DNA of 17,538 bases from a virus (IMGVR_UViG_2690316152_000010), one strand, 5' to 3'. Positions 1-17,538 are shown, counted from the stretch's first letter. The notes: generated from the letters alone by a model not told the origin. Translations and numbers: made by a program.

Positions 1-141
1 TTACTGCTTACACTGTAAGAACGCCGCAAACTCCGCTCCCCAGAAGCTCATCCGTATTTCACACAGCGAACCGTGTAGCATCCAGATGATGAGGATTACC
101 GTCACGCAGAATGTGATGGCCGTAAGCGATTTTTGCGACAT
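1..141 (-). CDS. Hok/Gef-family small membrane toxin (type I toxin-antitoxin toxin), 46 aa
   Basis: Reverse-strand translation gives MSQKSLTAITFCVTVILIIWMLHGSLCEIRMSFWGAEFAAFLQCKQ: one hydrophobic helix followed by an SLCE(I/L) motif and an AAFL-C tail, as in Hok proteins. AGGAG Shine-Dalgarno 9 nt upstream of the ATG at 141. The stop codon is the first three bases of the window. Not in the supplied ORF track (below its size cutoff). Confidence 0.6.
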   Translation of the reverse strand: MSQKSLTAITFCVTVILIIWMLHGSLCEIRMSFWGAEFAAFLQCKQ

Positions 142-170
142 AGCGCTTGCTCCTTTGTTGGAGAGGCGCT
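142..170 (-). promoter_or_regulatory. Possible SD-sequestering stem-loop in the hok-like leader
   Basis: On the mRNA strand, AGCGCCTCTCC ... GGAGCAAGCGCT can pair (AGCGC/GCGCT plus CTCC/GGAG), burying the GGAG Shine-Dalgarno immediately upstream of the start codon. This is reminiscent of hok mRNA fold-back control. Pairing judged by eye only. Confidence 0.3.
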
Positions 171-332
171 AACCTATCACTTGCTTAAGGTAGATATGTT
201 AGGGCCTCGGTTAAACAGAAATGTTTTCCGGGGCCTTTCCACATCTGGCCTTCGGGTATTCCCTCCGACCATCAGCCGAAAGGCACCCGCGCGTAATCTA
301 TCGCTTTTTTGTTACTCCGGCAATTCTGCCTG

Positions 333-593
333 TTAATTCTGAGGTAAAGGCAAACTCATCTGATTGTTTCCCCTGTGTGAAGCTGGCAGCTCATGCCACG
401 GGATACCTTCTGAAGAGTGAACGCCGGAGGTGTGTTTTGATGTGAATTTATGGAAAGCTTCCAGTGTTGAGAAGCATACGCCGCATTCCAGGTTGTTACA
501 CTGGTAATACTTTTGCCGCACGGTGTTTGAATCATTTTCCGGACGACTGGTGCGGATACGGGCAGATGCGCCACAAAGCGGACAACGGAACAT
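333..593 (-). CDS. ogr: Ogr/Delta-family zinc-finger late-gene transcriptional activator
   Basis: N-terminus MFRCPLCGASARIRTSR...YYQCNNLECGVCF carries the CX2C-X(22-24)-CX4C arrangement and conserved RTSR motif of P2 Ogr / 186 B / P4 Delta. AAGGGAGG Shine-Dalgarno 7 nt upstream of the ATG at 593. Confidence 0.85.
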   Translation of the reverse strand: MFRCPLCGASARIRTSRPENDSNTVRQKYYQCNNLECGVCFSTLEAFHKFTSKHTSGVHSSEGIPWHELPASHRGNNQMSLPLPQN

Positions 594-635
594 AGCGACC
601 TCCCTTAACGTGGTGCTGCTGCTATTCTAAGTTGC

Positions 636-1745
636 TCACTCTGTTTCTGCTATCCATTCCGAGATTTTTGCCTCAAGCTCAAGCTGCGTGGTAAAGCCGC
701 TGTTATCGATGGTGTGCTCGGCTTTTGCAATAATCCAGTCCTGATTATCAATCTCGCTTTTAAATCCTGTTACCGTGCCATGCATTTCGGGGTAGAGTTC
801 TGCACGACCACATGCCAGCGTGATGGAGAATGATGCGGCTCCGCGTTGTAGCTGCTGCCACTTTGCCGCCGCTGCGCGTCTTGCTGCCTGCTCGTTCTGA
901 TAAGTCTTGCGTAACACAAACACATTGCCTTCCGCGCCTTCCATATAATCACCTTCACGGCTGCTGCTTTTCTCCTTTTTGGGTTTTGGCGGTTTGCGGT
1001 GTTTCACGCTGACTTTTTTCTTTTTCCCGTAATTAAGATCAAGCCAGTAAGCGCGTACCCCCGTATACGCTTCGCGGTCAGCAATGCGGAACTGATGGCG
1101 ATCGCCACTGCTGCGCGTGATGGCGAACGATGGCAACGGCTGGCCCTGTGCGTTCACGCCACCGCCTGGCATAATGAATAACAGATTACCGCTTTTTACC
1201 GTGGTGATTGCGCCCAGCATTTCCGCCATGCGCGTAAGGAAGGACATGTCGCTTTCTTCGGTCTGGTCGGCGTGGTCGATTTCGATATCCATCAGCATTT
1301 CGCTGATTTGCGGTTTCAGACCATACCGATGAGCGATGGCGGATACCACACGCTCAACGGTCACATCATGCCAGGACACCTCACGTTTAACGTTAAATTC
1401 ATCCCGAAAATCTGCGCTTCTGGCTGAAACAGTCAGCCTGTCCGGCGGTCCTTCGTGAGCGATTTCATCAACAATGTAAGTGCCTTTTTCTGTCAGCGGT
1501 TCTCCTTTCCAGCCAATGAGAACCGTCAGGCGCGCGCCCCGTGGCGGTAGCTGCAACTGACAATCCGCATCATCCAGCGTGATGGTGAGCTGGTCCGCGT
1601 CAAATCCCCGGTTGTCGGTCAGTGACAGGCTCATCAGGCGCTCTGCCACGCCTGACAGCGTTTTACCCTCCGCGAGAATATCAAAATCCGGCATTTTCAC
1701 GGGGTCTGTGCCCTGACTGAGCAATTGCATGGTGGTATCGGTCAT
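636..1745 (-). CDS. D: Tail protein D (P2 gpD family, 'late control D')
   Basis: 369-aa product starting MTDTTMQLLSQG. Contains the gpD-family blocks LSLTDNRGF.ADQL.I.LDD, RSADFR, SWHD, ESD..FL.R.AE, GDRHQF, REGDYMEGAEGNV, LQRGAASFS and SGFTT.LELE, plus a lysine-rich KKKKVSVKHRKPPKPKKEK linker. Start taken at the ATG at 1745, which has an AGGGAGG Shine-Dalgarno 6 nt upstream, not at the upstream in-frame start of the 413-aa ORF. Confidence 0.85.
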   Translation of the reverse strand: MTDTTMQLLSQGTDPVKMPDFDILAEGKTLSGVAERLMSLSLTDNRGFDADQLTITLDDADCQLQLPPRGARLTVLIGWKGEPLTEKGTYIVDEIAHEGPPDRLTVSARSADFRDEFNVKREVSWHDVTVERVVSAIAHRYGLKPQISEMLMDIEIDHADQTEESDMSFLTRMAEMLGAITTVKSGNLLFIMPGGGVNAQGQPLPSFAITRSSGDRHQFRIADREAYTGVRAYWLDLNYGKKKKVSVKHRKPPKPKKEKSSSREGDYMEGAEGNVFVLRKTYQNEQAARRAAAAKWQQLQRGAASFSITLACGRAELYPEMHGTVTGFKSEIDNQDWIIAKAEHTIDNSGFTTQLELEAKISEWIAETE

Positions 1746-1902
1746 CTGTTCCCTCCCTGTGCGGCATGGTCGCATGTGCGTGCGGAGGGGGTTACTGCTT
1801 TTTGTTGTCGCCGGATCGGGAGAACGGCACAGGGGTGAGATTACGCGCGTGGTGGGTGATGATTGTTGCCGAATCATTTAACGGATACAAGGGGCTAAAG
1901 CT

Positions 1903-3087
1903 ATGAGTGAAACTCGTTTTCATGGTGCCCGTGTTACGGAAAATACCGACCTGGTAACAGCGATTAACGATGTTGATTCCAGCGTTATCGGTATCGTGGC
2001 AACGGCGGATGATGCGGACGCGAAGCTGTTCCCGCTGAACAAGCCCACACTGCTGACCCGCGTCAATGACGTGCTGGGAAAATGCGGGACAACGGGGACG
2101 CTTTATCGTGCGCTTAAGGCCATCGCAGACCAGGTGAGCACAAAGGTGATCGTCGTTCGCGTGGCTGAACACAAAGAAGAAGACGGAAAGACGCAGGATC
2201 AACTGGTTATCGGTGGTTCTGAATCTGACGGCAGCTATACGGGGATGTATGCGCTGCTTGTTGCAGAGCAGGATGAAAGCATCGGATACCGTCCGCGTAT
2301 TCTGGCCGCGCCGGAGCTGGACACGGAGGCGGTGACAAAATCCCTGTGCGTGATTGCGGGTAAACTGCGCGCGTTTGTGTATGCCTCATGTCACGGCTGT
2401 AACACGATGGCTGAGGCGATTACCTACCGCCAGAAATTCAACGAACGTGAGGTGATGCTCTTATGGCCGGACTTCATCGCCTACAACCCGAAAAGTGGCA
2501 AAAACGAAACGTTCCCCGCGCCTGCCTATGCGTGCGGCCTTCGTGCGTACATTGACCATGAGCAGGGATGGCACAAATCACTGTCCAACGTTCCGGTTAA
2601 AAATGTGCTGGGGATGTCCAGGCATGTGTTCTGGTCGTTGCAGGCCGAAGACAGCGATGCCAATAGCCTCAACAACAAAGAAATCACGACCATTATTCGT
2701 CGCAACGGGTTCCGCTTCTGGGGCAACCGCACACCGGAAACGAACGCCTACATCTTTGAGGTGTATACCCGAACCGCACAGGTGCTGGCTGATTCAATTG
2801 CGGAAGCGCAGTTTGAAACCATCGACAGTCCACTGACGCCTGCGAACGTGAAAGATGTTATCAGTGCCATCAGGGCAAAACTGGATTCACTGGTTACTGC
2901 CGGGAAACTGATTGGGGCGTCGTGCTGGTATGACGTGGTGGATAACGGCACCACGAATTTACGTCAGGGGCGCGTGCGTATTCGCTACAAATATACGCCT
3001 GTTCCCCCGCTGGAAGACATGGAGCTTTACCAGTCGTTTACTGATGAATTCTTTGGTCCCGCATTTGCGGTGCTGGGAGGTGCCTGA
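1903..3087 (+). CDS. FI: Contractile tail sheath protein (P2 gpFI family)
   Basis: 394 aa, the size of P2 FI. Sits immediately upstream of the tube gene, with an AAGGGG Shine-Dalgarno before the ATG and a stop that overlaps the FII start (TGATG). Confidence 0.9.
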   Translation: MSETRFHGARVTENTDLVTAINDVDSSVIGIVATADDADAKLFPLNKPTLLTRVNDVLGKCGTTGTLYRALKAIADQVSTKVIVVRVAEHKEEDGKTQDQLVIGGSESDGSYTGMYALLVAEQDESIGYRPRILAAPELDTEAVTKSLCVIAGKLRAFVYASCHGCNTMAEAITYRQKFNEREVMLLWPDFIAYNPKSGKNETFPAPAYACGLRAYIDHEQGWHKSLSNVPVKNVLGMSRHVFWSLQAEDSDANSLNNKEITTIIRRNGFRFWGNRTPETNAYIFEVYTRTAQVLADSIAEAQFETIDSPLTPANVKDVISAIRAKLDSLVTAGKLIGASCWYDVVDNGTTNLRQGRVRIRYKYTPVPPLEDMELYQSFTDEFFGPAFAVLGGA

Positions 3088-3599
3088 TGGCTGTACCAAA
3101 ACATCTTCGCTTTTTTACGCTGTTTGTGGATGGTGAAAACGAAGTGGGTAAGGTGACGTCCGTCACGCCGCCCAAACTGACGCGCAAAACCGACAGCTAT
3201 CGTGGTGGTGGCATGATGGGGGCGGTAAGTATTGATCTCGGTCTGGACGACTCCGCGCTTGATGCGAGTTTTGTTATGGGGGGAGCTGTTCGTGCGCTGT
3301 TCCTTAAATATGGCGGCACGATTGACGGCACGCTGCTGCGTTTTGCGGGTGAATACTACACCGATGCAGAAAGCGATCTGTATGAAATCGAGATGCGCGG
3401 GCGTGTGACGGAAATTGATATGGGGGAGGCCAAACAGGGCGAAGCCACATCACACACTTACGCTGTCAAAAACACCTACTACAAGCTGAGCGTTAACGAT
3501 CGCCCGCTGTTGGAAATCGACCTGTTGAACCACATCTACCGGAAGGACGGCAAGGACATTGTGCCTGACCGCATTCGTTCCGCGCTTGGGCTTGGCTGA
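3087..3599 (+). CDS. FII: Tail tube protein (P2 gpFII family)
   Basis: 170 aa. Start overlaps the sheath stop. Position between sheath and the E/T chaperone and tape-measure genes matches the conserved sheath-tube-chaperone-tape measure order. Confidence 0.9.
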   Translation: MAVPKHLRFFTLFVDGENEVGKVTSVTPPKLTRKTDSYRGGGMMGAVSIDLGLDDSALDASFVMGGAVRALFLKYGGTIDGTLLRFAGEYYTDAESDLYEIEMRGRVTEIDMGEAKQGEATSHTYAVKNTYYKLSVNDRPLLEIDLLNHIYRKDGKDIVPDRIRSALGLG

Positions 3600-3654
3600 T
3601 AAGTAATATGCAGGCGGCGCAGTGCGTCGCCTCTGACTGAAAAGGAGACAACTG

Positions 3655-4029
3655 ATGAAAGATATCGATACTGAAACCCGGAATAACACCGTAGCGGATG
3701 ATGTGACGGCAGGTGAGGATATGGCTGTCGAACGTGGTGTAAAACTTTCCCGGCCAATTGAGCGTGGTGGCGAAAAAATCACATATGTGGAGATCACCGG
3801 GGCTATTGAGCAGGCGGGATCCCTGCGTGGTCTGTCGCTGTCTGATGTGCTGAATCTGAAAGCGGATACCATGTTCACGCTGTTGCCTCGCGTGACCTCG
3901 CCACGACTGGATGAAGTGATGATTAAAAAAATGTCGTCACGCGATTTTATTCGGTTGTGCGCTGTGGCTGTAAATTTTATGAGCGAGCCAGACTCTGGCG
4001 CGAAGAGCGTGCAGGAGACGGCAGCGTAA
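3655..4029 (+). CDS. E: Tail assembly chaperone E (P2 gpE family)
   Basis: Small acidic ORF directly upstream of the tape-measure gene, with an AAGGAG Shine-Dalgarno 8 nt before the ATG. A second frame stays open beyond its stop (see E'). Confidence 0.75.
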   Translation: MKDIDTETRNNTVADDVTAGEDMAVERGVKLSRPIERGGEKITYVEITGAIEQAGSLRGLSLSDVLNLKADTMFTLLPRVTSPRLDEVMIKKMSSRDFIRLCAVAVNFMSEPDSGAKSVQETAA

Positions 4030-4193
4030 TCACCCTGGTGTGCTTTGAGCACATCGAAGATCTGGTGGCGGATATTGCCGCCATTTTTAACTGGTCGCCC
4101 GCCGAAATCTTCATGATGACGCCCGGCGAAGTGGTTAGCTGGCGCGAGCGGGCGGCACTTCGCAGCGGGAATGCAGACAATGAAGACTCTTGA
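3655..4193 (+). CDS. E': Predicted E' (E+E') product made by a programmed -1 frameshift from E
   Basis: The -1 frame relative to E is open from 3927 to the TGA at 4191-4193 and has no credible start of its own. The heptamer A_AAT_TTT at 3972-3978 fits the X_XXY_YYZ slippery pattern in the E frame. The E' end overlaps the T start. Exact shift site is unverified. Confidence 0.45.
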
Positions 4194-6987
4194 TATCCGG
4201 GTCGCTTTCAGCGCCGTTGACAGGCTGACCCGGCCTGCCGAAAACGCCCGCCGCCTGATGGGGCAGTTTGGTGACTCCATCCAGCGAACGCAGGGGGCGA
4301 TCAAAAATCTCGAGCGTCAGGCGCGATCATTTGAGCGCGCCCGCGACGCTGTCAGTAAAGCGGATGCGGGTATCGTGAAAGCACGACGCCAGCTTAACGC
4401 CCTTAATCAGTTACAACGCACGGGTACAGTGCTCAGCGAAAAACAACAAAAGCTGATGCAGCAGTTAAGCACCCGGCTTGAACGCCTGAATGAATCGCGC
4501 ACACGGGAAATTCAGAAAATGCGGGAGCTTGGCGGAGAGCTGAAACGCCACGGCATTTCCCTGACAGGCAGCGATAACACCATCCAGCAGGCCATCAGAC
4601 GCACCGAACAGTACAACAACCAGCTTGAACGCGAACGGCAGGCGCTTGCGCGTGTAACGCGGGCGCGTGAGCGGTATTCGCGCGCGCAGGAAACCGCGGG
4701 AAAACTGAAAACAGGTGGTGCGCTGGCAATTGGTGCGGCAGCGGCGGGCGGCTATGCTGCCGGGCGTTTTTTGCAGCCTGCGATCGGGTTCGGCAAAGAG
4801 ATGTCCCGCGTTCAGGCACTGACGCGAATCGACAAAAACAGCCCGCAGTTTAAGGCGCTGCGTGAGCAGGCGTTAAAACTTGGCTCTGAAACACAGTTTA
4901 CTGCGAGTGATGCCGCCAGTGGGCAGAGCTTTCTGGCAATGGCTGGTTTTACTCCGCAGGCCATTCAGGCCGCATTGCCCGGTGTTCTTAATATGGCGCT
5001 GGCAGGTGGCGTCGAACTCGGCGAGACGGCGGATATAGGCTCCAATATCCTCACACAGTTCAACCTGACAGCCGATCAAATGGACCGGGTTGGCGATACG
5101 CTGACAGCGGCATTCACCCGGACCAATACTGATTTACGCGCGCTGGGCGAAACCATGAAGTATACCGGTCCGGTTGCCGCAAAACTTGGTATCAGTCTTG
5201 AAGAAGCGGCGGCCATGGCCGGGATGCTTGCCAATAATGGTCTTCGTGGAAGCGATGCTGGTACGGCCATGCGCGCAAGTCTGTCCCGCCTTGCATCACC
5301 GCCAAAAGCTGCGGCTGATGCGCTGAAAGAGCTGGGGGTGTCAGTTGCTGACGCCAGAGGCAAAATGCGCCCGATGGAGGATGTGCTGCTTGATCTCTAT
5401 AAGGCGACACAAAAATACGGACAGGTGGACCAGGTTTCCTTCTTCAAGGACATCGCCGGAGAAGAGGCGTTCGTTGGTTTGCAGACGCTTGTTGCTGCGG
5501 CTGGTTCAGGAGAGCTGCAAAAACTGACCAGAGAATTGCAGGGGGCAAGGGGAGAGGCCGATCGCGTCGCAAAAGTAATGGCCGATAATCTTGATGGGGA
5601 CCTGAAAAATCTCGACAGCGCATGGGAAGGTCTTCGTATTCGCATCAGTGATCTGGTTGACGGTCCGCTGCGTTCTGTCACGCAGTGGCTCACGCGGGTG
5701 CTTGAAAAAATCACCTCGCTGGCGCAGGCCCATCCGGTACTGACGCGCCAGCTACTGATAGCAGGCGGTGCGTTGCTGGCAATGACTGCAACGGTTGGCT
5801 CGTTGTCGCTGGCTATTGGTGTGCTTGCTGGCCCGCTGGCAAAACTGCGTCTTGGCTTTTCCCTCCTGACCGGTTCAATGAATGCTGTCAGACTCCTGCC
5901 AGCACTATGGGGAATGGTGACGGGTTCCGTTTCGTTACTGGGGGGCGCTATCGGGGCGTTGTTCAGTCCGGTCGGTCTTATCGTGGCTGCGCTTGCCGGA
6001 GCTGCCGTTCTCATCTGGAAATACTGGGATCCCATCAGGGCATTTTTTGCCGGGGTGTTCAGCGGGATTATGGAAAGGCTGACCCCGTTGCGCGAAACCT
6101 TTGAACGGTTTGGTCCTGTTTTTGACGCAATCGGAAGCGGGATCAGCCAGGTGTTTAACTGGTTTAAATCGCTGTTGTCACCGATGGAGTCCAGCAAGGA
6201 AACGCTGGATAAATGTACCAGTGCTGGCGAGATATTCGGTAACGTTCTTGGCGGTGCGTTACAACTTGTTCTGACACCTGCAAAAATGCTACTGGATACG
6301 CTGGCGTGGATACTTGAAAAACTTGGCGTCCTTCCGGATGAAGCGGAAAGGGCGCGCAAGAAAATCGAAGACGCACAGCGTGCGGCCATTCTTCAGGACA
6401 AGGTTGCCTTACTTCAGGGGGACCTGGCGAAAATCAATCCGCCGAAGCCTGTGGAAAATGGCAATGGCACCGGAGGTGATAAACCCAAAGACAACAAACC
6501 GCTCACAGACAGCAATACCGGGACGCTGCGCAGACTCAGCAAAATTGCTGATAACACAGGTAAGCTGGTTGATGAGACGAAAAAACGCATTGGCCCCGGC
6601 GATATTGTCTTTAAGAACCTGCCCCGCGCACTTGCTGTTCGTGGGGAGTGGCAGGAGCGGAAGATTGCGCAGGTCAGTAAGCCTGCCCCCGCAATTAATA
6701 TCACACCCGTGGTTCCGGCTCCGCTGCCTCCGGCGCTGGTCCCTGTTGTTGCGGCCAGCTCCCGCCCGGTGGCGGAGGCCATACGATCGCCAGTGGCATC
6801 AGCTCCTGCAACTTCCCGTAACCGGGAGCCTGTTGCCTCCGGATTTGGCGGTGAAATTCATGTTCATCTGCATAACATTGTTACACAGAATCCCCGCGAA
6901 CTGGCGAAACTGGTCGGTGAAATGGTTAGGGCAGAAATGGAACGGCGCGCCCGTGCCGGGCGTGGCAGTTTTTACGATAAAGATTGA
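4171..6987 (+). CDS. T: Tail tape-measure protein (P2 gpT family)
   Basis: 938 aa. N-terminal charged, coiled-coil-like region (many R/E/Q/L runs), central glycine/alanine-rich hydrophobic segments, Pro/Ala/Val-rich C-terminal region. Located after E/E'. The true start may be the second ATG at 4180, which has GGGAA 8 nt upstream. Confidence 0.9.
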   Translation: MQTMKTLDIRVAFSAVDRLTRPAENARRLMGQFGDSIQRTQGAIKNLERQARSFERARDAVSKADAGIVKARRQLNALNQLQRTGTVLSEKQQKLMQQLSTRLERLNESRTREIQKMRELGGELKRHGISLTGSDNTIQQAIRRTEQYNNQLERERQALARVTRARERYSRAQETAGKLKTGGALAIGAAAAGGYAAGRFLQPAIGFGKEMSRVQALTRIDKNSPQFKALREQALKLGSETQFTASDAASGQSFLAMAGFTPQAIQAALPGVLNMALAGGVELGETADIGSNILTQFNLTADQMDRVGDTLTAAFTRTNTDLRALGETMKYTGPVAAKLGISLEEAAAMAGMLANNGLRGSDAGTAMRASLSRLASPPKAAADALKELGVSVADARGKMRPMEDVLLDLYKATQKYGQVDQVSFFKDIAGEEAFVGLQTLVAAAGSGELQKLTRELQGARGEADRVAKVMADNLDGDLKNLDSAWEGLRIRISDLVDGPLRSVTQWLTRVLEKITSLAQAHPVLTRQLLIAGGALLAMTATVGSLSLAIGVLAGPLAKLRLGFSLLTGSMNAVRLLPALWGMVTGSVSLLGGAIGALFSPVGLIVAALAGAAVLIWKYWDPIRAFFAGVFSGIMERLTPLRETFERFGPVFDAIGSGISQVFNWFKSLLSPMESSKETLDKCTSAGEIFGNVLGGALQLVLTPAKMLLDTLAWILEKLGVLPDEAERARKKIEDAQRAAILQDKVALLQGDLAKINPPKPVENGNGTGGDKPKDNKPLTDSNTGTLRRLSKIADNTGKLVDETKKRIGPGDIVFKNLPRALAVRGEWQERKIAQVSKPAPAINITPVVPAPLPPALVPVVAASSRPVAEAIRSPVASAPATSRNREPVASGFGGEIHVHLHNIVTQNPRELAKLVGEMVRAEMERRARAGRGSFYDKD

Positions 6988-6993
6988 GGAGTC

Positions 6994-7488
6994 ATGGCCA
7001 TGATGATGATCTACGGCATGTTTGTTTTTGAGCTGCGCACGCTGCCGCATCAGCAGTTACAGCAAAACAAAAGCTGGCGGCATGTGAAAAATGAACGCGT
7101 TAACCGTTCAGCAGGCTGGCAGTATATCGGCGCAGGTGATGATCGCATTGTGCTTTCCGGCGTGCTTTATCCTGAAATTACAGGTGGCGAAGTGTCGCTT
7201 TCGTTGCTGACCACGCAGGCATATACAGGACGCCCCTGGCCTCTGATTGATGGTGTCGGGCAGATTTACGGCATGTATGTACTGACTGAAACGAATACGA
7301 CCCGTTCCGAGTTTGATCGCTATGGTAAGGCGAAAAAGATAGAATTTTCACTGACTCTTGAACGCTGTGATGAGGATTTGCGGGAGCGCCTGCAATCCTC
7401 ATCGTTCAGCGATATGCTGTCCGGCTTCAAAGATAAAGTGACATCATCTCTTAACAGCGCGGCCAGCTCCGTTAAAGGGCTGTTTTGA
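6994..7488 (+). CDS. U: Tail protein U (P2 gpU family)
   Basis: 164 aa beginning MAMMMIYGMFVFELRTLPHQ. Immediately downstream of T, with a GAGGAG Shine-Dalgarno. Size and position match gpU. Confidence 0.8.
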   Translation: MAMMMIYGMFVFELRTLPHQQLQQNKSWRHVKNERVNRSAGWQYIGAGDDRIVLSGVLYPEITGGEVSLSLLTTQAYTGRPWPLIDGVGQIYGMYVLTETNTTRSEFDRYGKAKKIEFSLTLERCDEDLRERLQSSSFSDMLSGFKDKVTSSLNSAASSVKGLF

Positions 7489-7495
7489 TTAACGC

Positions 7496-7525
7496 AAAAC
7501 CGCTAATGGTCAGATTAGCGGTTTT
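7496..7525. terminator. Bidirectional rho-independent terminator hairpin between U and the invertase
   Basis: Perfect 12-bp inverted repeat AAAACCGCTAAT / ATTAGCGGTTTT (7496-7507 and 7514-7525) with a 6-nt loop. A/T runs on both sides give a U-tract in either orientation. Sits 8 nt after the U stop and overlaps the invertase stop codon. Confidence 0.5.
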
Positions 7526-8114: not shown

Positions 8115-8168
8115 AAAAAACATCCTCTTTGTTTCGTGAAAAATACAGAGTTGGTATAGGTAGGGATA

Positions 8169-8194
8169 AAAACGAAAACGTTGGTTTGGGGGAA
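8169..8194 (+). promoter_or_regulatory. Candidate invertase crossover site s1 at the 5' edge of cassette A
   Basis: AAAACGAAAACG-TT-GGTTTGGGGGAA. The right half and about 60 bp downstream are shared by every cassette junction. The AAACN-NN-GGTTT core resembles gix/hix/cix-type sites. The 26-bp boundaries are inferred, not demonstrated. Confidence 0.4.
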
Positions 8195-9131: not shown

Positions 9132-9137
9132 TACCGT

Positions 9138-9285
9138 TCAACTGGCAAGTGCCAGTGGCGCTTCCGGCCAGCTGATTTCAGGTGCCGTGCTGATATCCAG
9201 TGCGTTCAGCTCGTCGATATAATCCAGCACGGCGTTCAGTTTTGCCGTTTCTTCTGGTGTCAGACTGCGACCAGCACGCAGTTAA
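9138..9285 (-). pseudogene. 3' remnant of a tail-fibre assembly (tfa) gene: last ~48 codons only
   Basis: Exact reverse complement of the 3' end of the intact tfa (16430-16577). On its own strand the frame is closed by an in-frame TAA exactly where the homology ends, with no start codon. Confidence 0.7.
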
Positions 9286-9347
9286 CGCCGGGTGGGGCTG
9301 CCTGCAGATATAACGATATTATTCCGGCCGACCACTGCCTGCATGAT

Positions 9348-10826: not shown

Positions 10827-10849
10827 GGAAGAGCAGGAGAGCAAAACAG

Positions 10850-11317
10850 ATGCTTAAGACAAACAGTCTGCGAGAGTCCATGCTTCATGGGTGTCGGTGG
10901 TGCCAGGCTAATCCCGAGAAATTCACCATTTTCGTGGAGAGCGGCAACATTGAAACGACCGGAGAAGCGCCCTCGTTTGTTTACCGCTATCAGATGGTGA
11001 TGTTTGTCATGGATTACGCCGGAGAGCTGGACGACCTCACGCTGCCGCTGCTGGCGTGGTTATCCGAAAATCAGCCACAGTTGTTGCTCAATCCGGAGCG
11101 TAATCAGGACATCAAATTTTCTGCCGTTATCAATGACGATGACAGCGCCGATCTCCTGTTTACGCTCCCCCTGCGGGAACGCGTTCGCATCACGCGCAAC
11201 AGTCAGGGCACACCGCAGGCAGAACACCTGCCGGAGCCAAAACCCCGTCTGCCCTCTTCCGAAGGCGACTGGTCGCATGTATTCCAGGATGTGACGTGGG
11301 GTGAAAGCGATGGATAA
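10850..11317 (+). CDS. R: Tail completion protein R (P2 gpR family)
   Basis: 155 aa, starting MLKTNSLRESM, with ...PLLAWLSENQP... in the middle, matching gpR in size and pattern. AGGAG Shine-Dalgarno upstream. Directly precedes the S/V/W/J/I/H block. Confidence 0.75.
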   Translation: MLKTNSLRESMLHGCRWCQANPEKFTIFVESGNIETTGEAPSFVYRYQMVMFVMDYAGELDDLTLPLLAWLSENQPQLLLNPERNQDIKFSAVINDDDSADLLFTLPLRERVRITRNSQGTPQAEHLPEPKPRLPSSEGDWSHVFQDVTWGESDG

Positions 11318-11945
11318 GGCATTCACCAGCGTGGATGAAACCTTTGAGGCTATCCGCGACAGCCTGAATCAGCAGGCCATCAATAACATCGCCAGAAAGC
11401 TGGCACAGGATTTACGTCGCGCCCAGCAGGCACGTATCCGATCACAAAAAGCGCCGGACGGGACCGAATGGACACCACGCAGACGCCGCGTAACCCGGAT
11501 ACAGGAGCGCATTCGCTTTATCTGGAATAACGAAGCACGCACGCTGAAAAACTGGCATCACGACACGGGGAAATACGGGCGAACCATTACCGGGTGGGAT
11601 GAGGATAAAAACAATATCCGCACGTTTTACCGGGATGACATCGACCGTTTTCTGGAAATACGCACCCGGCGCATCAACCAGGACAGCACAAAGCGCGTCC
11701 CCATGTTCGTAAAACTGCGCACCGCCCGCTACCTGAAAGCCCGTGCAGATGCCTCCGGTGTGACGGTGGGTTACAGCGGCGTGGCCGCACGTATTGCACG
11801 CGTTCATCAGTTCGGTGAGCGCGATCAGGTTGCGCCGGGCATTTTCACCGATTACCCGGTACGTGAGCTGTTGGGTATCAGCCAGGCAGATGAGCGCCTG
11901 ATTTATAACACGGTGCTGGGCCGGATTGCGGAGGCTGTACGGTGA
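11310..11945 (+). CDS. S: Virion morphogenesis / tail completion protein S (P2 gpS family)
   Basis: Position between R and V. Contains QKAPDGT.W.PRR and VHQFG motifs that I associate with gpS-type proteins. Overlaps the R stop. The alternative GTG start at 11301 is possible. Confidence 0.65.
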   Translation: MDKAFTSVDETFEAIRDSLNQQAINNIARKLAQDLRRAQQARIRSQKAPDGTEWTPRRRRVTRIQERIRFIWNNEARTLKNWHHDTGKYGRTITGWDEDKNNIRTFYRDDIDRFLEIRTRRINQDSTKRVPMFVKLRTARYLKARADASGVTVGYSGVAARIARVHQFGERDQVAPGIFTDYPVRELLGISQADERLIYNTVLGRIAEAVR

Positions 11946-12523
11946 GCGCAGAACTCATGCGACTGCTGAGCAACATCATCCGCACCGGGATCATCTCTGA
12001 AGTTGATGAGAAGTCCTGGCGCGTGCGCGTTCGCAGCGGCGAACTGGAAACAGGCTGGTTGCGCTGGAACACCACGCGCGCGGGAGCCTTCAATGTGTGG
12101 CTGCCGCCATCACCAGGCGAACAGGTGGTAATTGCCTGCATTGGCGGCAACCCGGAAACCGCCATGATAATTGGCAGCCTGTGGAGTGATGCCAGTCCGG
12201 CCCCCGGCAAAAGCCTGAAAGAAATCGTGGTCAGCGCGCCGGATGGCGCGGTGTTCCGCTACGACGCAGACGCTGGCGCACTGAGCGCCAGCGGCATGAA
12301 AACAGCCACCCTGCAGGCATCCGTCAGCGTGACACTGGATACGCCCGTCGTGGAATGCACAAACCTTCTGAGAACAGCGACGCTTGACGTCACAAAAGGG
12401 GGAAAGATGAGCGGCAATATCACGCACAGCGGCGGCAACTTCACCTCAAACGGCATCACAGTGCATACGCATAAACACGGTGGTGTGAAAGGCGGCAGCG
12501 ATTCGACAGGAGGCCCGCAGTGA
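11942..12523 (+). CDS. V: Baseplate spike/assembly protein V (P2 gpV family)
   Basis: N-terminal IRTGIISEVD...GWLRW..TRAG....W.PP.PGEQVV and C-terminal TLDTPVVECTN...KGGKMSGNITHSGGNFTSNGITVHTHKH are characteristic gpV blocks. GTG start overlaps the S stop, with GGAGG upstream. Confidence 0.9.
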   Translation: MSAELMRLLSNIIRTGIISEVDEKSWRVRVRSGELETGWLRWNTTRAGAFNVWLPPSPGEQVVIACIGGNPETAMIIGSLWSDASPAPGKSLKEIVVSAPDGAVFRYDADAGALSASGMKTATLQASVSVTLDTPVVECTNLLRTATLDVTKGGKMSGNITHSGGNFTSNGITVHTHKHGGVKGGSDSTGGPQ

Positions 12524-12870
12524 CAACCCGCTACACAGGAATGAATCCGGACGGGACGGGAAACCTGAATGATATGGAGCACCTGAAACAGTCAGCCAGG
12601 GACATCCTGACCACCCCGCTGGCCAGCCGGGTTATGCGACGGGAATATGGCAGCCTTGTACCTGATTTGATTGACGAACCCATGAATAACACCACGCGTC
12701 TGCAATGCATGAGTGCTGCCGTGATTGCGCTGACACGATGGGAACCCCGCATTGCCCTGGACGCCATCGACGTTGTCTGGAAAGCGGGAGGCCGCGCCGG
12801 GGTGACGCTGTCGGGCACTGTCATGCAGACCATGCAGAATGTTGAGTTAACCATCACGCTGAGGGAGTAA
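12520..12870 (+). CDS. W: Baseplate wedge protein W (P2 gpW / T4 gp25-like lysozyme fold family)
   Basis: MTTRYTGMN...DLEHL.QS..DIL.TP..SRVMRR.YGS start and 116-aa size match gpW. GTG start overlaps the V stop, with AGGAGG 7 nt upstream. Confidence 0.9.
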   Translation: MTTRYTGMNPDGTGNLNDMEHLKQSARDILTTPLASRVMRREYGSLVPDLIDEPMNNTTRLQCMSAAVIALTRWEPRIALDAIDVVWKAGGRAGVTLSGTVMQTMQNVELTITLRE

Positions 12871-12873
12871 ATC

Positions 12874-13770
12874 ATGCCTGCTGTTGACCTTTCCCAGTTA
12901 CCGGAACCCGCCATCATCGCGAAGCCTGATTTTGAGGCAATTCTGGCTGACACAAAGGCCATGATGATTGCGTCCTATCCTGCCGAACAGCGTGAAGCCG
13001 TCTCCGCCGCGCTGGAGCTGGAATCGGAACCCCTGAACGTTATCGCCCAGACAACAGCGTTTCGTGAAATGCTGTTACGCCAGCGGGTCAATGAGGGTGC
13101 ACGCGCCTGCATGTTAAGCCACAGCGCCGGGACAGACCTGGACAACCTCGCGGGCAATATGAACACAAAGCGCCTGGTTATCACTCCGGCAACGGATACC
13201 ACCGACGCGGTGATGGAAAGCGACACATCGCTGAGACTGCGGGCGCAACGGGCGTATGACGGTCTGAGTGTTGCTGGCCCGTCAGGCGCATACGAGTATT
13301 TTGCACGCAGCGCCAGCGGTCTGGTACGCGACGCGCGAGCCATCAGCCCGTCTCCGGCCAACGTGACGGTTTCCATCCTGTCCACTGAAGGCGACGGCAC
13401 AGCAACGGAGGCGTTGCTTAATACCGTTCGCGCCGTTCTGAATGCAGAGGATACCCGCCCGGTGGCCGACCGCCTGACCGTACAGAGCGCCAGAATCGTG
13501 ACATGGCGGCTGAATGCAAAACTGTACTTTTACCCCGGCCCGGAATCCGAACCTATTCTGGCCGCGGCTGAATCGTCGTTCAGGAAGTGGCTGGCTGAGC
13601 AGGGGCTTATCGGTCAGGACGTGGCGTTGTCCGCCATTGCTGCCGCACTGCATGTGCACGGTGTGCAACGCGTGGAGATAATCGAACCCACACAGAATAT
13701 GGCCATCAGCGACATACAGGCGGCGCGCTGTGAGTCATTCACCATCAGCGAAGGTGGACGCAATGAGTAA
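12874..13770 (+). CDS. J: Baseplate protein J (P2 gpJ family)
   Basis: 298 aa, in the position and of the size expected for gpJ between W and I. GAGGGAG Shine-Dalgarno upstream. Confidence 0.85.
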   Translation: MPAVDLSQLPEPAIIAKPDFEAILADTKAMMIASYPAEQREAVSAALELESEPLNVIAQTTAFREMLLRQRVNEGARACMLSHSAGTDLDNLAGNMNTKRLVITPATDTTDAVMESDTSLRLRAQRAYDGLSVAGPSGAYEYFARSASGLVRDARAISPSPANVTVSILSTEGDGTATEALLNTVRAVLNAEDTRPVADRLTVQSARIVTWRLNAKLYFYPGPESEPILAAAESSFRKWLAEQGLIGQDVALSAIAAALHVHGVQRVEIIEPTQNMAISDIQAARCESFTISEGGRNE

Positions 13771-14371
13771 TTCGTTGTTACCACCATCAGCCAGCAATTT
13801 CATGCGTTGTGCCGAAGCCGTCGGAACACGCATTACAGACATTCCGGTAGACCTCAACACGCTGTGGTCGCCGGACACCTGCCCGGTGCATCTGCTGCCT
13901 TATCTCGCCTGGGCGTTTTCCGTTGACCGCTGGGATCGCAACTGGCCGGAAGAGACAAAGCGACAGGTGATTCGTGATGCATGGCTGATACACCGACACA
14001 AAGGGACCATCAGCGCACTGCGAAGAGCCGTGGAGCCTCTCGGCTACCTGATTGAAGTAAAGGAGTGGTGGCAACTCAACGAGGAGCCGGGAACATTTCG
14101 CATTGTTGTCGGAGTACTTGATCAGGGCATCACCGATGAAATGTATCAGGAACTTGAGCGCCTTATTGCGGATGCAAAACCAGTAAGTCGCCATCTGACG
14201 GGGCTGGCGATCAGCCTGAGTGTGAACGGAAAGATTTTCGTTGGTACGGGATGCTATCACGGCGATGCCCTGACGGTTTATCCCTACACCCCGGAGTCCA
14301 TTATTGTCGAAGGGGATTATTTCCCTGCCCCGGCCATTCATTTAATTGATAATCTGAGAGTAAACGCATGA
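13763..14371 (+). CDS. I: Baseplate/tail protein I (P2 gpI family)
   Basis: MSNSLLPPSAS... with LW.PDTCP..LLPYLAWAFSVDRWD..WPEETKR.VIRDA, GTFR..VGVL..GITDEMYQELERLIADAKP.SRHL. Start taken at the ATG at 13763 (AAGGTGGA Shine-Dalgarno), overlapping the J stop, rather than the longer track ORF from 13730. Confidence 0.85.
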   Translation: MSNSLLPPSASNFMRCAEAVGTRITDIPVDLNTLWSPDTCPVHLLPYLAWAFSVDRWDRNWPEETKRQVIRDAWLIHRHKGTISALRRAVEPLGYLIEVKEWWQLNEEPGTFRIVVGVLDQGITDEMYQELERLIADAKPVSRHLTGLAISLSVNGKIFVGTGCYHGDALTVYPYTPESIIVEGDYFPAPAIHLIDNLRVNA

Positions 14372-15963
14372 CAGTGAAATACTACGCCATTCTGACTAAT
14401 CAGGGCGCGGCACGACTGGCTAACGCGACGATGCTCGGCAGTAAGCTGAATCTGACGCGAATGGCCGTTGGTGATGCAAATGGTGTGTTACCAACACCAG
14501 ACCCTGCACAAACAAAACTGATTAACCAGAAACGCATTGCACCGCTGAATCTTCTGAGTGTTGACCCTAACAATCAGAGCCAGATTATTGCGGAGCAAAT
14601 CATCCCTGAAAGCGAGGGTGGATTCTGGATCCGTGAGATTGGTCTTTATGATGATAAAGGTGTACTCATTGCGGTGGCAAACTGCCCGGAAACGTACAAA
14701 CCGCAGTTGCAGGAAGGCAGTGGACGCACCCAGACTATCCGCATGATTCTGGTTGTCACGAACACCGAAGCCATCACGCTGAAAATCGACCCGTCTGTGG
14801 TTCTGGCAACCCGCAAATATGTGGATGATAAAATCTCAAAGCACGAGCAGTCACGACGTCACCCGGACGCCTCGCTGACCGCAAAAGGCTTTGTTCAACT
14901 TAGCAGTGCCACGGACAGTCAATCAGAAACTGAGGCTGCCACGCCGAAGGCTGTGAAAATCGCGTATGATCTGGCCTGGGGAAAATACACAGCCCAGGAT
15001 GCAACAACGACCCGTAAAGGGATCGTACAACTGAGCAGTGCCACCAACAGCACCTCTGAAACGCTGGCCGCCACACCAAAAGCCGTCAAGGCGGCATACG
15101 ACCTTGCAGCCGGCAAGGCCCCCGTCAGCCACACTCACCCATGGAGTCAGATAACGGGAGTGCCTGCTGCCTCGCTGACGGCAAAAGGCACCGTACAACT
15201 GAGCAGTGCCATCAACAGCACGTCTGAAATACTGGCCGCCACACCGAAAGCGGTCAAGGATGCATACGATCTGGCAAACGGAAAACAACCGGCAGATGCC
15301 ACGCTCACTGCTCTGGCAGGACTTGCCACTGCAGCAGATCGGTTGCCTTATTTTACCGGAGCAGACCGCGCAGCGCTGGCAACCCTTACAGCTATTGGTC
15401 GCGCTATTATCGCTAAGGGCAGTATAAAAGATGTCCTCAATTACCTTGGTTTGGGGGAAGGCTCTGCATTGCCTGTTGGTGTACCGGTTCCGTGGCCCAC
15501 CGCCACACCGCCAGAAGGCTGGTTAAAGTGCGACGGGCGCGCCTTTACAAAAGAACAATATCCTGTTCTGGCCAGAGCCTACCCGACCCTCAGTCTTCCC
15601 GATTTACGCGGTGAGTTTATCCGTGGATGGGACGACGGGCGCAAAGTTGATACAGGACGTAAGTTGCTGTCCGCACAAGGGGCAACGCTGTTAAGAACAG
15701 CAATGCTGGATTATTATAACCAGGACACTACGGGAACCTCGGGGATAGTCGGCATGGGATTCAACAATGAAGATTCCATTACAGACCTTCGTGAGGGCAG
15801 CTTTAAAATGCCGGACGGGACAACATTCAGCGATCCTGTCGTGGCAATGTCAGACAATGGTATGCAGGCTACTATTCTGACCTCTATCAGAAGCGGGTAT
15901 GCGAAGGGTATCACTGTCAGACCCCGTAGCATTGCACTTAATTACATTGTGAGGGCAGTTTAA
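14368..15963 (+). CDS. H: Tail fibre protein H (P2 gpH family): constant N-terminal shaft (to ~15447) fused to the currently expressed variable C-terminal domain
   Basis: Strong gpH blocks: GGFWIREIGLYDD.G.LIAVAN, HEQSRRHPDASLTAKGFVQLSSAT, repeated SETLAATPKAVKAAYDLA units, KQP.DATLTALAGLATAADR.PYFTG. From the shared junction (LNYLGLGEGSALPVGVPVPWP...) onward it carries a third variant of the tail-collar C-terminal domain, ending ...RPRSIALNYIVRAV*. Confidence 0.9.
   Translation: MTVKYYAILTNQGAARLANATMLGSKLNLTRMAVGDANGVLPTPDPAQTKLINQKRIAPLNLLSVDPNNQSQIIAEQIIPESEGGFWIREIGLYDDKGVLIAVANCPETYKPQLQEGSGRTQTIRMILVVTNTEAITLKIDPSVVLATRKYVDDKISKHEQSRRHPDASLTAKGFVQLSSATDSQSETEAATPKAVKIAYDLAWGKYTAQDATTTRKGIVQLSSATNSTSETLAATPKAVKAAYDLAAGKAPVSHTHPWSQITGVPAASLTAKGTVQLSSAINSTSEILAATPKAVKDAYDLANGKQPADATLTALAGLATAADRLPYFTGADRAALATLTAIGRAIIAKGSIKDVLNYLGLGEGSALPVGVPVPWPTATPPEGWLKCDGRAFTKEQYPVLARAYPTLSLPDLRGEFIRGWDDGRKVDTGRKLLSAQGATLLRTAMLDYYNQDTTGTSGIVGMGFNNEDSITDLREGSFKMPDGTTFSDPVVAMSDNGMQATILTSIRSGYAKGITVRPRSIALNYIVRAV
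14869..15276 (+). repeat. Three in-frame tandem repeat units inside H
   Basis: Units at about 14869-14976, 15013-15108 and 15169-15276 encode near-identical (A)SLTAKG.VQLSSAT.S.SE.LAATPKAVK.AYDLA segments. The strong nucleotide similarity also produces the shadow ORFs on the opposite strand at 14919-15288. Confidence 0.8.
15434..15459 (+). promoter_or_regulatory. Candidate invertase crossover site s3 at the constant/variable junction of H
   Basis: TCCTCAATTACC-TT-GGTTTGGGGGAA. The left half is H-constant sequence; the right half and the following ~60 bp are identical to the cassette junctions at s1 and s2. Confidence 0.45.
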
Positions 15964-16577
15964 TGAGTAACACTGCAGTTCTGGATGAAAACGGTATCGC
16001 CACTGTAGCGGGCGATATCACTGTATATCACTATGACGAGGAAACCCGGGAATACACCTCATCCTCTGTGGAGTATCTCGCCCTTGGGGTGGGTACTCCG
16101 GCACATTCGTGCGCCGATGCACCGCCGGAGGCAATTTCGGGTTACGTGGTTTGCCGGACTGCCACGCTGAACGGGTGGGAGCATGTGCCTGATCACCGCG
16201 GCGAGACGGTATACAGCACGGAGAACGGTAACCCTGTTCTGATTACCCAACCGGGTGATTACCCGGCGGACACCACCACAAAACAGCCAGCCACGCCATG
16301 GGATACCTGGAACGGTGAGGCGTGGGTAACCGATACTGAACGGCAGCGAGCCGCAGAACTGGAGGTTGCCAGACAGCAACGCCAGCAACGGGTGAAACAG
16401 GCGATGGCGTCCGTCGATCTTATCAACCTCAAACTGCGTGCTGGTCGCAGTCTGACACCAGAAGAAACGGCAAAACTGAACGCCGTGCTGGATTATATCG
16501 ACGAGCTGAACGCACTGGATATCAGCACGGCACCTGAAATCAGCTGGCCGGAAGCGCCACTGGCACTTGCCAGTTGA
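15963..16577 (+). CDS. Tail fibre assembly chaperone (Tfa / P2 gpG / Mu U-like)
   Basis: 204 aa, directly after H with a TAATG stop/start overlap. C-terminal ...LTPEE.AKLNAVLDYIDELNALDISTAPEISWPE.P is typical of Tfa-family chaperones. Confidence 0.8.
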   Translation: MSNTAVLDENGIATVAGDITVYHYDEETREYTSSSVEYLALGVGTPAHSCADAPPEAISGYVVCRTATLNGWEHVPDHRGETVYSTENGNPVLITQPGDYPADTTTKQPATPWDTWNGEAWVTDTERQRAAELEVARQQRQQRVKQAMASVDLINLKLRAGRSLTPEETAKLNAVLDYIDELNALDISTAPEISWPEAPLALAS

Positions 16578-16583
16578 ACGGTA

Positions 16584-17060
16584 TCACGCCGCCCTCACGA
16601 TATAGTTAAACGCGATATTGCGGGGGCGGGTTATGTTAAAGAATGCTCCGTTTAATTCGGCTTTTGCGCGACTGTTTGTTCCACCCAGTATTGCGTACCA
16701 CAAATAATCGCTACGGTAATTCCCCGCAAACACCTTATCGCCGCCATAGTCAATATTATTTCCGTTACTCATGTACGAGATATCAAGCGCAGAATCGTTA
16801 TCGTCATGACCGCCGACCAGTGTACCTTTCTGCCATGAAAGCAACTTACGCCCCTCGTCAATCTTGCGCCCGTCGTCCCATCCACGGATAAACTCACCGC
16901 GTAAATCGGGAAGACTGAGGGTCGGGTAGACTCTGGCCAGAACAGGATATTGTTCTTTGGTGAACGTAGCTCCGTTGCACTGTAACCAGCCTGCTGGCGG
17001 TGTGGCGGTGGGCCATGGAACCGGTACACCAACAGGCAATGCAGAGCCTTCCCCCAAACC
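16584..17060 (-). CDS. Inverted copy of tail-fibre cassette B (promoterless variable C-terminal domain)
   Basis: Encoded 157-aa sequence is identical to 8658-9131. Converges on the tfa stop, 6 nt away. Confidence 0.75.
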   Translation of the reverse strand, partial: GLGEGSALPVGVPVPWPTATPPAGWLQCNGATFTKEQYPVLARVYPTLSLPDLRGEFIRGWDDGRKIDEGRKLLSWQKGTLVGGHDDNDSALDISYMSNGNNIDYGGDKVFAGNYRSDYLWYAILGGTNSRAKAELNGAFFNITRPRNIAFNYIVRAA

Positions 17061-17074
17061 AACGTTTTTATGCC
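17049..17074 (-). promoter_or_regulatory. Candidate invertase crossover site s4 (inverted copy of s2)
   Basis: Mirror image of 8641-8666 within the inverted repeat. Confidence 0.4.
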
Positions 17075-17532
17075 GCCCTTACGATATAATTAAAGGCAAT
17101 ATTACGAGGACGGTTTTCATTAGCTGTTGGCACGACACGAGAGGCGTCGAATCCAAGGTCATCGGTTTTGTCTATAGTAGTTGTGTTATTCGGCATTCTC
17201 GCTGATCGTGTTCCTGCATCGTAAAAAGCCCCTCTGATTGCATCAAAAGACATACCGATCCCGCCATCTGCGAATCCCTCAATATTTCTTATTGCATCCC
17301 CCTGTGAAGATAATAATTGTCGCCCGGCATCCACACCACGTCCGTCATCCCAGCCACGAATAAATTCACCGCGTAAATCGGGAAGACGGAGGGTCGGGTA
17401 GGCTCTGGCCAGAACAGGATATTGTTCTTTTGTAAAGGCGCGCCCGTCGCACTTTAACCAGCCTTCTGGCGGTGTGGCGGTGGGCCACGGAACCGGTACA
17501 CCAACAGGCAATGCAGAGCCTTCCCCCAAACC
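17068..17532 (-). CDS. Inverted copy of tail-fibre cassette A (promoterless variable C-terminal domain)
   Basis: Encoded sequence is identical to cassette A (8183-8647). Confidence 0.75.
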   Translation of the reverse strand, partial: GLGEGSALPVGVPVPWPTATPPEGWLKCDGRAFTKEQYPVLARAYPTLRLPDLRGEFIRGWDDGRGVDAGRQLLSSQGDAIRNIEGFADGGIGMSFDAIRGAFYDAGTRSARMPNNTTTIDKTDDLGFDASRVVPTANENRPRNIAFNYIVRAA

Positions 17533-17538
17533 AACGTT
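17521..17538 (-). promoter_or_regulatory. Candidate invertase crossover site s5 (inverted copy of s1), truncated by the window end
   Basis: Mirror image of 8177-8194. The outer half-site lies beyond the window. Confidence 0.3.

Follow-up and report, generated by a model that had tools for sequence, protein, structure and literature searches.

The window, by which we mean the whole 17,538-nt stretch of DNA analysed here, covers the tail-gene end of a P88-like E. coli prophage (Xuanwuvirus-type, related to P2) and comes from the end of a draft contig. Its gene order departs from that of P2, and the original prediction took this as a sign of recent rearrangement. No recent rearrangement was found: the odd order is probably in part a scaffolding error and in part the normal layout of P88-like prophages. 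The account that we favour with high confidence combines N-joined duplicate pieces of one P88-like prophage locus, an old and fixed inversion of the FI-U block, and a putative pair of D and FI promoters arranged around a shared activator dyad.

Orthologues of the P2 late genes R S V W J I H G FI FII E T U D and of the Ogr/Delta activator are all present in the window. The gene identities and their order had been read correctly from the sequence, as Pfam and tblastn with P2 proteins confirm (E 1e-11 to 1e-112; 25-60% amino-acid identity), and the P2 late order quoted for comparison agrees with the P2 record. An Rfam scan of the whole window gave no match. The features are as follows.

1-141, minus strand: hok/gef-family toxin gene at the prophage edge (weak PF01848 match; Hok/Gef annotation in relatives)
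333-593, minus: ogr/delta-type late activator (PF04606, E=5e-14; 41% identity to P2 Ogr)
636-1745, minus: D, tail/baseplate hub (PF05954; 50% identity to P2 D)
1746-1902, no strand: divergent control region between D and FI (alignment of 25 loci; conserved across genera)
1903-7488, plus: FI-U block, inverted relative to P2 (Pfam, gene calls, tblastn against P2; likewise its five members)
1903-3087, plus: FI
3087-3599, plus: FII
3655-4193, plus: E/E'
4180-6987, plus: T
7000-7488, plus: U
7515-8114, minus: Gin-like serine DNA invertase, 199 aa (PF00239 and PF02796)
8129-9131, plus: fibre C-terminal cassettes beside the invertase
8177-9283, plus: left repeat arm, which duplicates 16432-17538 and stops at the N
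9284, no strand: putative scaffold join, a single N of the public record that reads A in the window
9285-10826, plus: 5'-truncated SASA/DUF6645 (nanS-p-like esterase) gene (Pfam; intact in relatives)
10850-16577, plus: R, S, V, W, J, I, H, G (tail completion, baseplate, fibre, chaperone; Pfam, synteny)
16432-17538, minus: right arm of the inverted repeat, with the G 3' end and two silent cassettes; reaches the contig end
16584-17538, minus: fibre cassettes distal to G

How far can the order be trusted as written? The source is contig CYBG01000002.1 (353,633 bp) of the draft E. coli assembly GCA_001285145.1, for which a literature search by accession gave no match. The window is the final 17.5 kb of this contig, which ends 2 nt beyond the window end. 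At position 9284 the source record has N and the window A. This N falls exactly where the left repeat arm, at its inner end, meets the block that follows, and we assume it to be the mark of a scaffold join. The large inverted repeat that had been noticed is real in the window, where 8177-9283 and 16432-17538 are 100% complementary over 1,107 nt. The left arm holds two silent fibre C-terminal cassettes and the final 48 codons of G (minus strand, 9283 to 9138), and the right arm extends to the contig end, which lies inside crossover site s1, 6-8 nt beyond its core. Another inverted repeat of 26 nt (863/12413) is only 81% complementary and was taken as chance.

The join at 9284 connects this 3' fragment of G with the 5'-truncated nanS-p-like gene, and none of 5,426 complete E. 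coli genomes has this junction. The right-hand junction at 16431/16432, where the cassette runs into full-length G, is contiguous in 617 of the 5,426. Where intact in relatives, the nanS-p-like gene encodes 626 aa; the truncated product (489 aa) is on record in CYBG01000002.1 only. The first 100 nt of the gene after the N have the profile of a mosaic, being those of a paralogous lambdoid-prophage allele, and this mosaic was not found in any complete genome. A 68-aa gene call spans 9284, and it exists only because of the N in the record: an A there turns the codon into the stop TAA. A 30-mer across the join had no match in viral, genome, and metagenome contig collections; this search is uninformative because the query carried A where the source record has N. 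Gap filling and scaffolding are greedy procedures in which false joins are possible, and joins are written as N (PMC5320598, PMC3446322); the GapFiller paper does not state the meaning of a residual single N (PMC3446322).

From the N, the duplication, and the comparison with relatives, we infer a misjoin at 9284. Two assembly pieces, 1-9283 and 9285 to the contig end, would have been linked by the single N, both being one locus that was assembled twice, in opposite orientations, with 1.1 kb of the invertible fibre segment in common. The presence of this 1.1 kb in both pieces would thus produce the 'perfect inverted repeat' and place R-G on the FI-U strand. When overlapped through the repeat, the pieces would read (head, lysis, nanS-p-like) R S V W J I H G, silent cassettes, and Gin-like invertase, continuing with U T E' E FII FI on the other strand and then D ogr hok. 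Since the window is not a continuous read-supported sequence, the relative orientation of its halves is not an observation about a genome. The co-orientation of R-G with FI-U is best read as an assembly artefact, because the single-N join is found in no other genome.

Could the scaffold nevertheless be right? The 5 nt before the N (CAGTT) are the same 5 nt that naturally precede the first bases of the right piece in intact nanS-p genes, a match with odds of about 1 in 1,000 by chance. It could be a microhomology junction, either real or made in the library, and it counts against an artefact. A recent real rearrangement might have arisen by template switching or illegitimate recombination at this microhomology, leaving a defective prophage in which a 1.1-kb inverted duplication flanks an inverted 7.1-kb R-G block. 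Illegitimate recombination would give truncated genes on either side of the join, as seen here, and linking evidence presumably made the assembler put the pieces together. We consider such a rearrangement improbable, however: the junction is absent from all 5,426 complete genomes, the N is one extra position compared with a clean junction, the arms are 100% identical and the second halts at the contig end, and the N is followed by 100 nt of a paralogous allele, as is typical where a contig ends in a collapsed repeat. Moreover, a true perfect repeat of 1.1 kb would probably be unresolvable by short reads unless reads were re-used. If it were real, the structure could flip by homologous recombination, which would uncouple the fibre switch from the invertase.

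The perfect identity of the arms also fits a collapsed repeat from two near-identical P88-like prophages, or a prophage and a remnant, lying in opposite orientations, with the contig a collapsed or chimeric path through them. Complete E. coli genomes do carry up to 3 P88-like D/FI regions each. On the other hand, the window can be explained without a second copy, the left piece enters unique chromosome, and the right piece shows no additional divergent positions. We regard two prophages as quite improbable. The join would still be an artefact in that case, and the conclusion on gene order is therefore unchanged. It is extremely doubtful that the Gin-like invertase inverted the entire R-G block as a large programmed inversion. 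It is true that crossover site s1 lies at both outer arm ends, 8177 and the contig end. No core, however, is found within 600 nt of the inner break points, 9283/9284 and 16431/16432, and the idea was rejected on this ground. Conservative site-specific inversion neither duplicates 1.1 kb nor truncates genes, and no relative was found in such a state.

The misjoin of two pieces of a single prophage locus agrees with what is found in relatives. In a blastn comparison with strain AVS0542, both halves of the window are collinear with one prophage once the right half is reverse-complemented. In every relative, R-G and FI-U are encoded on opposite strands, as seen for R-H in P88, AVS0542, and FORC_069. 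As written, the window has R-H and FI-U co-oriented by way of the N join, and merging the 1.1-kb duplicate gives the P88 order. The earlier description of a sheath-to-U block that precedes the baseplate block, with the invertase between U and R, is accurate for the window as written, but it depends on the N join.

The closest named relatives form the P88 group (Xuanwuvirus, Peduoviridae), which includes Citrobacter phage PhiSM, 500465-2, and P884B11 and is 92-95% identical in nucleotide sequence to window 1-8108. P88 has hok, ogr, D(-), FI-U(+), invertase(-), and fibre cassettes in identical order, and its G H I J W V S R are encoded by the other strand, which would also hold here once the join is corrected. 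It differs in its fibre C-termini and the number of cassettes, and it is without the nanS-p-like esterase gene, which both the window and its closest E. coli relatives carry between lysis and R. The arrangement typical of P88, with ogr and D divergent from FI-U and the invertase just past U, is present at window 333-8114. This architecture is already known from sequenced functional phages; P88 and PhiSM are both functional temperate phages (PMC5285337, PMC6456863).

Is the inversion of FI-U recent? The P88-type inversion is found in 1,356 of 5,426 complete E. coli genomes, about a quarter, and each of the 43 informative loci, which come from over 20 Enterobacterales genera, has FI(-) D(+). The baseplate or fibre genes are convergent with U-FI in 31 loci of the scan of other genera, where the sole exception is another draft, with gaps of 1-2 N. 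Judged by this distribution, the FI-U inversion is ancient and stable, and the inverted FI-U block of P88-like phages is a real architecture that is widespread in enteric genera. A recent origin is contradicted by the same order in P88, in PhiSM, and in the E. coli genomes and other loci just counted. A synteny comparison with relatives had been proposed as the check on this point, and the shared order is the outcome that the original prediction itself had named as evidence against it.

Comparison with more distant phages suggests how the layout may have arisen. P2 (Peduovirus) resembles the window in having ogr after D, in the identical internal order of R-G, and in a similar geometry of activator sites. 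Unlike here, it has FI FII E T U D in a single operon that runs in the direction of V-G; in the window, FI-U is inverted, D is split from U, and the invertase and fibre cassettes lie where G and U converge. The P2 order, with V-G, FI-U-D, and ogr all co-oriented, was seen neither in the window nor in any relative. Salmonella phage Fels-2 (Felsduovirus) also has P2-type tail genes and an invertible fibre segment, with a Cin/Gin-like invertase after G, but FI-U-D-ogr follow the invertase, all collinear with P2. As the invertase of Fels-2 adjoins FI and the phage is collinear with P2, one inversion of FI-U explains the P88 type: it is the Fels-2 layout with FI-U inverted, and the invertase therefore abuts U. 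The single real departure from P2 and Fels-2 would then be the old, fixed inversion of the FI-U operon. Under such an inversion D-ogr stays in place, and consequently D and FI are transcribed away from each other, with about 157 bp between them.

The proposal of at least one large inversion was thus right, the inverted part being FI-U, while the rearrangement of R-G rests on the N join. D and ogr do diverge from FI, but it is FI-U that is inverted, and not D-ogr, which had been described as inverted and moved upstream of FI. The claim that D is monocistronic is not supported: ogr follows it after 42 nt on the same strand, and no terminator was predicted between them. There is a more general caution here. 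When a perfect inverted repeat is found at a contig end, beside a site-specific invertase and bounded by a single N, assembly should be suspected before biology.

The fibre region is a Din-family (Gin/Cin/Pin/Hin) tail-fibre switch, with a Gin-type invertase adjoining the invertible segment. The invertase matches PDB entries 4m6f and 3uj3 (E ~1e-91), both deposited as 'DNA-invertase', which we take to be Mu Gin. The crossover sites, whose sequence we take to resemble gix/hix, are located as follows.

8169-8194, plus: crossover site s1, with the core TTGGTTTGGGGGAAGG at 8181
8653 and 15446, plus: further crossover cores, exact copies of TTGGTTTGGGGGAAGG
17047 and 17519, minus: further crossover cores, exact copies of TTGGTTTGGGGGAAGG

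The window holds five exact copies of the core, against 0.01 expected by chance, and sequence identity between the copies of the site starts at the core. Once the duplicate is discounted, the distinct sites number three: two share an orientation, and the third, in H, is reversed. Din-family switches characteristically have such inverted sites where a fibre gene passes from its constant to its variable part. The sole difference between AVS0542 and the merged locus is a flip of this segment: window 15443-17065 is inverted relative to that strain, with collinear flanks and break points at the crossover cores. Both orientations are known from this comparison between strains, not from cells in one culture. 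As in the G segment of Mu and its Gin, the fibre has a constant N-terminus, its alternative C-termini are encoded on opposite strands, and the crossover sites lie where the constant and variable parts meet. In contrast to Mu, there are three sites and three alternative C-termini, and one chaperone gene only.

How might D be expressed after its separation from the F operon? The elements of interest in the D/FI spacer are these.

1806-1823, no strand: Ogr-type dyad TGTCGCCGGATCGGGAGA (TGT-N12-AGA), centre 1814.5
1766-1771, minus: predicted -10-like hexamer of the D promoter (GACCAT, preceded by TG-n; conserved block, geometry by analogy with P2 pP/pO)
1858-1863, plus: predicted -10-like hexamer of the FI promoter (GATGAT, GAnnAT in relatives; putatively assigned from a conserved block)

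No exact TGT-N12-ACA is present in 1746-1902, and the earlier statement that this region lacks a clean Ogr-type motif is literally true. It overlooks, however, a dyad with one mismatch at 1806-1823, the only site in the spacer with no more than one mismatch, and 17 relatives have a perfect TGT-N12-ACA at the homologous position. The perfect dyads of these relatives are centred 78-85 nt before the FI ATG, compared with 83 for P2 pF. The right half of the dyad in the window reads AGA instead of ACA, which is a point against the promoter model. The P2 pF and pO/pP sites read TGT-N12-CCA and are likewise one mismatch from the ideal dyad.

The D start codon (1743-1745) is kept in all aligned relatives. 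Both predicted -10-like hexamers are 46 nt from the dyad centre, and a sigma-70 promoter scan of the D/FI spacer found none; this spacing and the lack of a sigma-70-type match are consistent with Ogr/Delta-dependent promoters, in which the dyad is centred some 55 nt before the start and the -35 element is weak or missing. By analogy with P2 pP/pO, we infer a divergent pair of D and FI promoters around the dyad, in which a single Ogr-type site in the middle of the spacer would activate two mirror-image late promoters. In P2, one dyad also lies midway between two divergent late units, with its centre at 3071.5 and starts at 3016 and 3127, 55.5 nt to either side; it serves P and O rather than D and FI, and its right half is not the AGA of the window. 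If the model is correct, the FI-U inversion would have created, or come with, a second symmetric pair of divergent late promoters. The model is a modestly useful and testable by-product of the analysis, and it would explain the late control of D once the gene was parted from the F operon.

What part of this gene order belongs to the phage, and what part to the assembly? The ORF listing and Pfam agree with the gene assignments of the original prediction and give the following features.

333-593, minus strand, ogr
636-1745, minus strand, D
1903-3087, plus strand, FI
3087-3599, plus strand, FII
3655-4029, plus strand, E
ending at 6987, plus strand, T
ending at 7488, plus strand, U
7515-8114, minus strand, resolvase-type invertase
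8129-9131, plus strand, two 'Collar'-domain fibre C-terminal cassettes
9348-10826, plus strand, SASA/DUF6645 gene
10850-16577, plus strand, R, S, V, W, J, I, H and G
up to the window end, minus strand, two further fibre cassettes

With P2 proteins as tblastn queries, each tail gene was 25-60% identical to its P2 counterpart. The homologue of S (tail completion; 11301-11945) has 214 aa, compared with 150 aa in P2, and is 25% identical. H contains three copies of a ~101-nt direct repeat (14884-15284), spaced 132 and 168 nt, which correspond to Phage_fiber_2 repeats of the fibre shaft. The P2 order used for reference (R S / V W J I H G / FI FII E T U D / ogr) matches the P2 record, and the order reported for the window, not collinear with P2, is correct as a description. 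However, the window is a scaffold, and its R-G orientation is most likely an artefact.

Over its left 8.1 kb the window shares 92-95% identity with P88-group phages (Xuanwuvirus), Citrobacter phage PhiSM among them. P88 and PhiSM are functional phages, inducible or spontaneously released (PMC5285337; PMC6456863). In P88, hok and D (minus) are followed by FI FII E E' T U (plus), an invertase (minus) and a fibre cassette with chaperone (plus); next come G H I J W V S R, the lysis genes and X L M N O, all on the minus strand, and then P and Q (plus). The same layout is found in AVS0542, the closest complete E. coli genome (98% identity), where a 626-aa DUF6645 gene lies between lysis and R, and in E. 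coli FORC_069, except that an acetyltransferase replaces the invertase. By blastn, positions 1-8878 are collinear with AVS0542, while 9300-15284 match on the opposite strand. Thus, if X is the left block, A and A' the repeat arms and Y the stretch between them, the window reads X + A + Y + A' and its relatives X + A + the reverse complement of Y. In FORC_069, a serine O-acetyltransferase gene (L005 26325-26897) stands at the convergence of U and G in place of both invertase and cassettes; this point seems to be a cargo-exchange spot.

The large inverted repeat pointed out in the original prediction is present in the window but is most likely an assembly artefact. A repeat search gave 8177-9283 and 16432-17538, 1,107 nt with 100% complementarity, and the right arm reaches the window end. 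By exact-protein look-up, the window is the end of NCBI contig CYBG01000002.1 (GCA_001285145.1, 353,633 bp), which extends 2 nt further. These final bases are still complementary to 8175-8176, so the repeat stops only because the contig stops, 6-8 nt beyond the core of a repeated 16-mer, TTGGTTTGGGGGAAGG. A base-by-base comparison found a sole difference, at 9284, the base immediately after the left arm, which is N in the contig and A in the window. A 68-aa ORF across 9284 in the collection's gene calls depends on the N: an A at this position turns the codon into a TAA stop. At this join, the last 48 codons of G (minus) adjoin a nanS-p-like gene without ~130 N-terminal codons, whose 489-aa product is recorded in CYBG01000002.1 only. 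Contiguity across 9283/9284 (400-nt query) was found in none of 5,426 complete E. coli genomes, and the other inner junction, 16431/16432 (cassette to full-length G), is contiguous in 617 of them.

The two halves of the window are most likely two assembly pieces of one locus, sharing 1.1 kb of invertible segment; judged from sequence, they are joined by one N in an orientation without support from any relative. Merging both pieces through the common 1.1 kb would give the P88 gene order, and there is strong reason to regard the R-G orientation and the large inverted repeat as artefacts. Joins made by scaffolders and gap fillers appear as N in the sequence; these tools also lengthen contig ends with reads used a second time and may join pieces wrongly (PMC5320598; PMC3446322). 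Such a step may be the source of the join in CYBG01000002.1.

The start of the right piece is itself a mosaic. Positions 9285-9384 are identical to a lambdoid-prophage esterase allele (100/100) and match the P88-like allele at 83/100; 9385-9484 are identical to both, and from ~9485 on the gene is P88-like. The allele switch in the truncated nanS-p-like gene thus falls across a ~100-nt stretch common to both copies. No complete E. coli genome contains 9285-9884 at 99% identity or above, although either half by itself is common at this threshold. This looks like a path switch between paralogous copies and fits a contig end inside a multi-copy gene. Could the junction at 9284 instead be a microhomology junction, real or library-made? 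In its favour, within 9279-9285 the N is preceded by CAGTT, which belongs to G, and the same 5 nt stand ahead of ACGCC in intact nanS-p-like genes; compared with these, the N adds one extra position. Chance could account for the match (odds of about 1 in 1,000), as could a gap closer's overlap step or a chimera formed at a microhomology. Together, the match and the extra position leave such a junction a small probability beside the preferred misjoin of two assembly pieces.

Is the inversion of FI-U a different matter? Apart from the invertible fibre segment and invertase that follow its G gene, Fels-2 is collinear with P2. In the P88 type, compared with Fels-2, FI-U alone is inverted, which brings the invertase next to U and turns FI towards D. 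Of the 5,426 complete E. coli genomes, 1,356 contain the D/FI junction (1300-2500) at 95% identity or above. A D protein scan, one genome per species, gave 47 loci in more than 20 genera; the order FI (minus), D (plus), ogr (plus) holds in all 43 loci that include FI, and in 31 of the 43 baseplate or fibre genes converge with U-FI. The single exception is a Trabulsiella odontotermitis draft (L051, 1-21009) with seven 1-2-N gaps in 21 kb; nowhere else among the loci do I and H run in the direction of FI-U, its D is fragmented, and here too a scaffold misjoin may have occurred in a similar region. Two Firmicutes assemblies (L008, Vagococcus sp. WN89Y; L049, Planococcaceae bacterium UBA3378) carry a D protein 97% identical to that of the window and are probably contaminated with enterobacterial DNA. 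The frequency in E. coli and the uniform order in the 43 loci indicate an old, stable architecture. On this comparative evidence, the FI-U inversion and divergent D/FI region are real and lineage-wide, and they are already represented by sequenced phages. A recent rearrangement had been proposed; widespread relatives with the same D/FI-U order are the finding named at the time as one that would refute it.

D had also been called monocistronic. It probably is not, since ogr begins 42 nt after D on the same strand and no terminator is predicted in the gap; in P2, a single terminator after ogr serves ogr and the F operon. Just past ogr, at the prophage edge, lies a hok/gef-family toxin gene (1-141, minus), by which no antisense Sok-type RNA matched Rfam at the gathering threshold.

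The D/FI control region (1746-1902) had been described as lacking a clean motif for the late activator Ogr. It indeed holds no exact TGT-N12-ACA, nor any predicted sigma-70-type promoter, but it has one single-mismatch site, TGTCGCCGGATCGGGAGA at 1806-1823, which falls in a conserved block of the 25-locus alignment, TTTGTTGTC...A.A.C. At the homologous position 17 relatives carry a perfect TGT-N12-ACA, centred 78-85 nt ahead of the FI start codon (83 nt for P2 pF). The site in the window has AGA instead, as do Salmonella, Serratia, Erwinia, Pantoea and Enterobacter loci, and the annotated P2 pF and pO/pP sites are TGT-N12-CCA. Two more conserved blocks resemble -10 hexamers in that their second base is A and their sixth is T.

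1858-1863, plus strand, GATGAT on the FI side
1771 to 1766, minus strand (D strand), GACCAT preceded by TG-n

Each hexamer lies 46 nt from the dyad centre, 1814.5. The P2 pP and pO starts (3016 and 3127) each lie 55.5 nt from the centre of one common site. We infer that D and FI form a symmetric promoter pair around one Ogr-type dyad; this would be a second late-promoter pair of the P2 pP/pO kind, with predicted starts near 1759 and 1870.

The 16-mer TTGGTTTGGGGGAAGG occurs in five copies (0.01 expected by chance) and marks the point where identity between fibre cassettes starts. Structures matching the invertase (E about 1e-91) are PDB chains 4m6f and 3uj3, both labelled 'DNA-invertase', which we take to be phage Mu Gin; the 16-mers are read as putative cores of the invertase crossover sites. 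By blastn, the cassette region matches AVS0542 after one flip of the segment between two crossover sites, with break points at the 16-mer cores. The fibre switch (8129-9131 and 15443-17538; L001 23129-25272) comprises three crossover sites, three alternative H C-termini and one chaperone gene (G); with one chaperone gene and a flipping segment, some states would leave H without a co-oriented chaperone after it.
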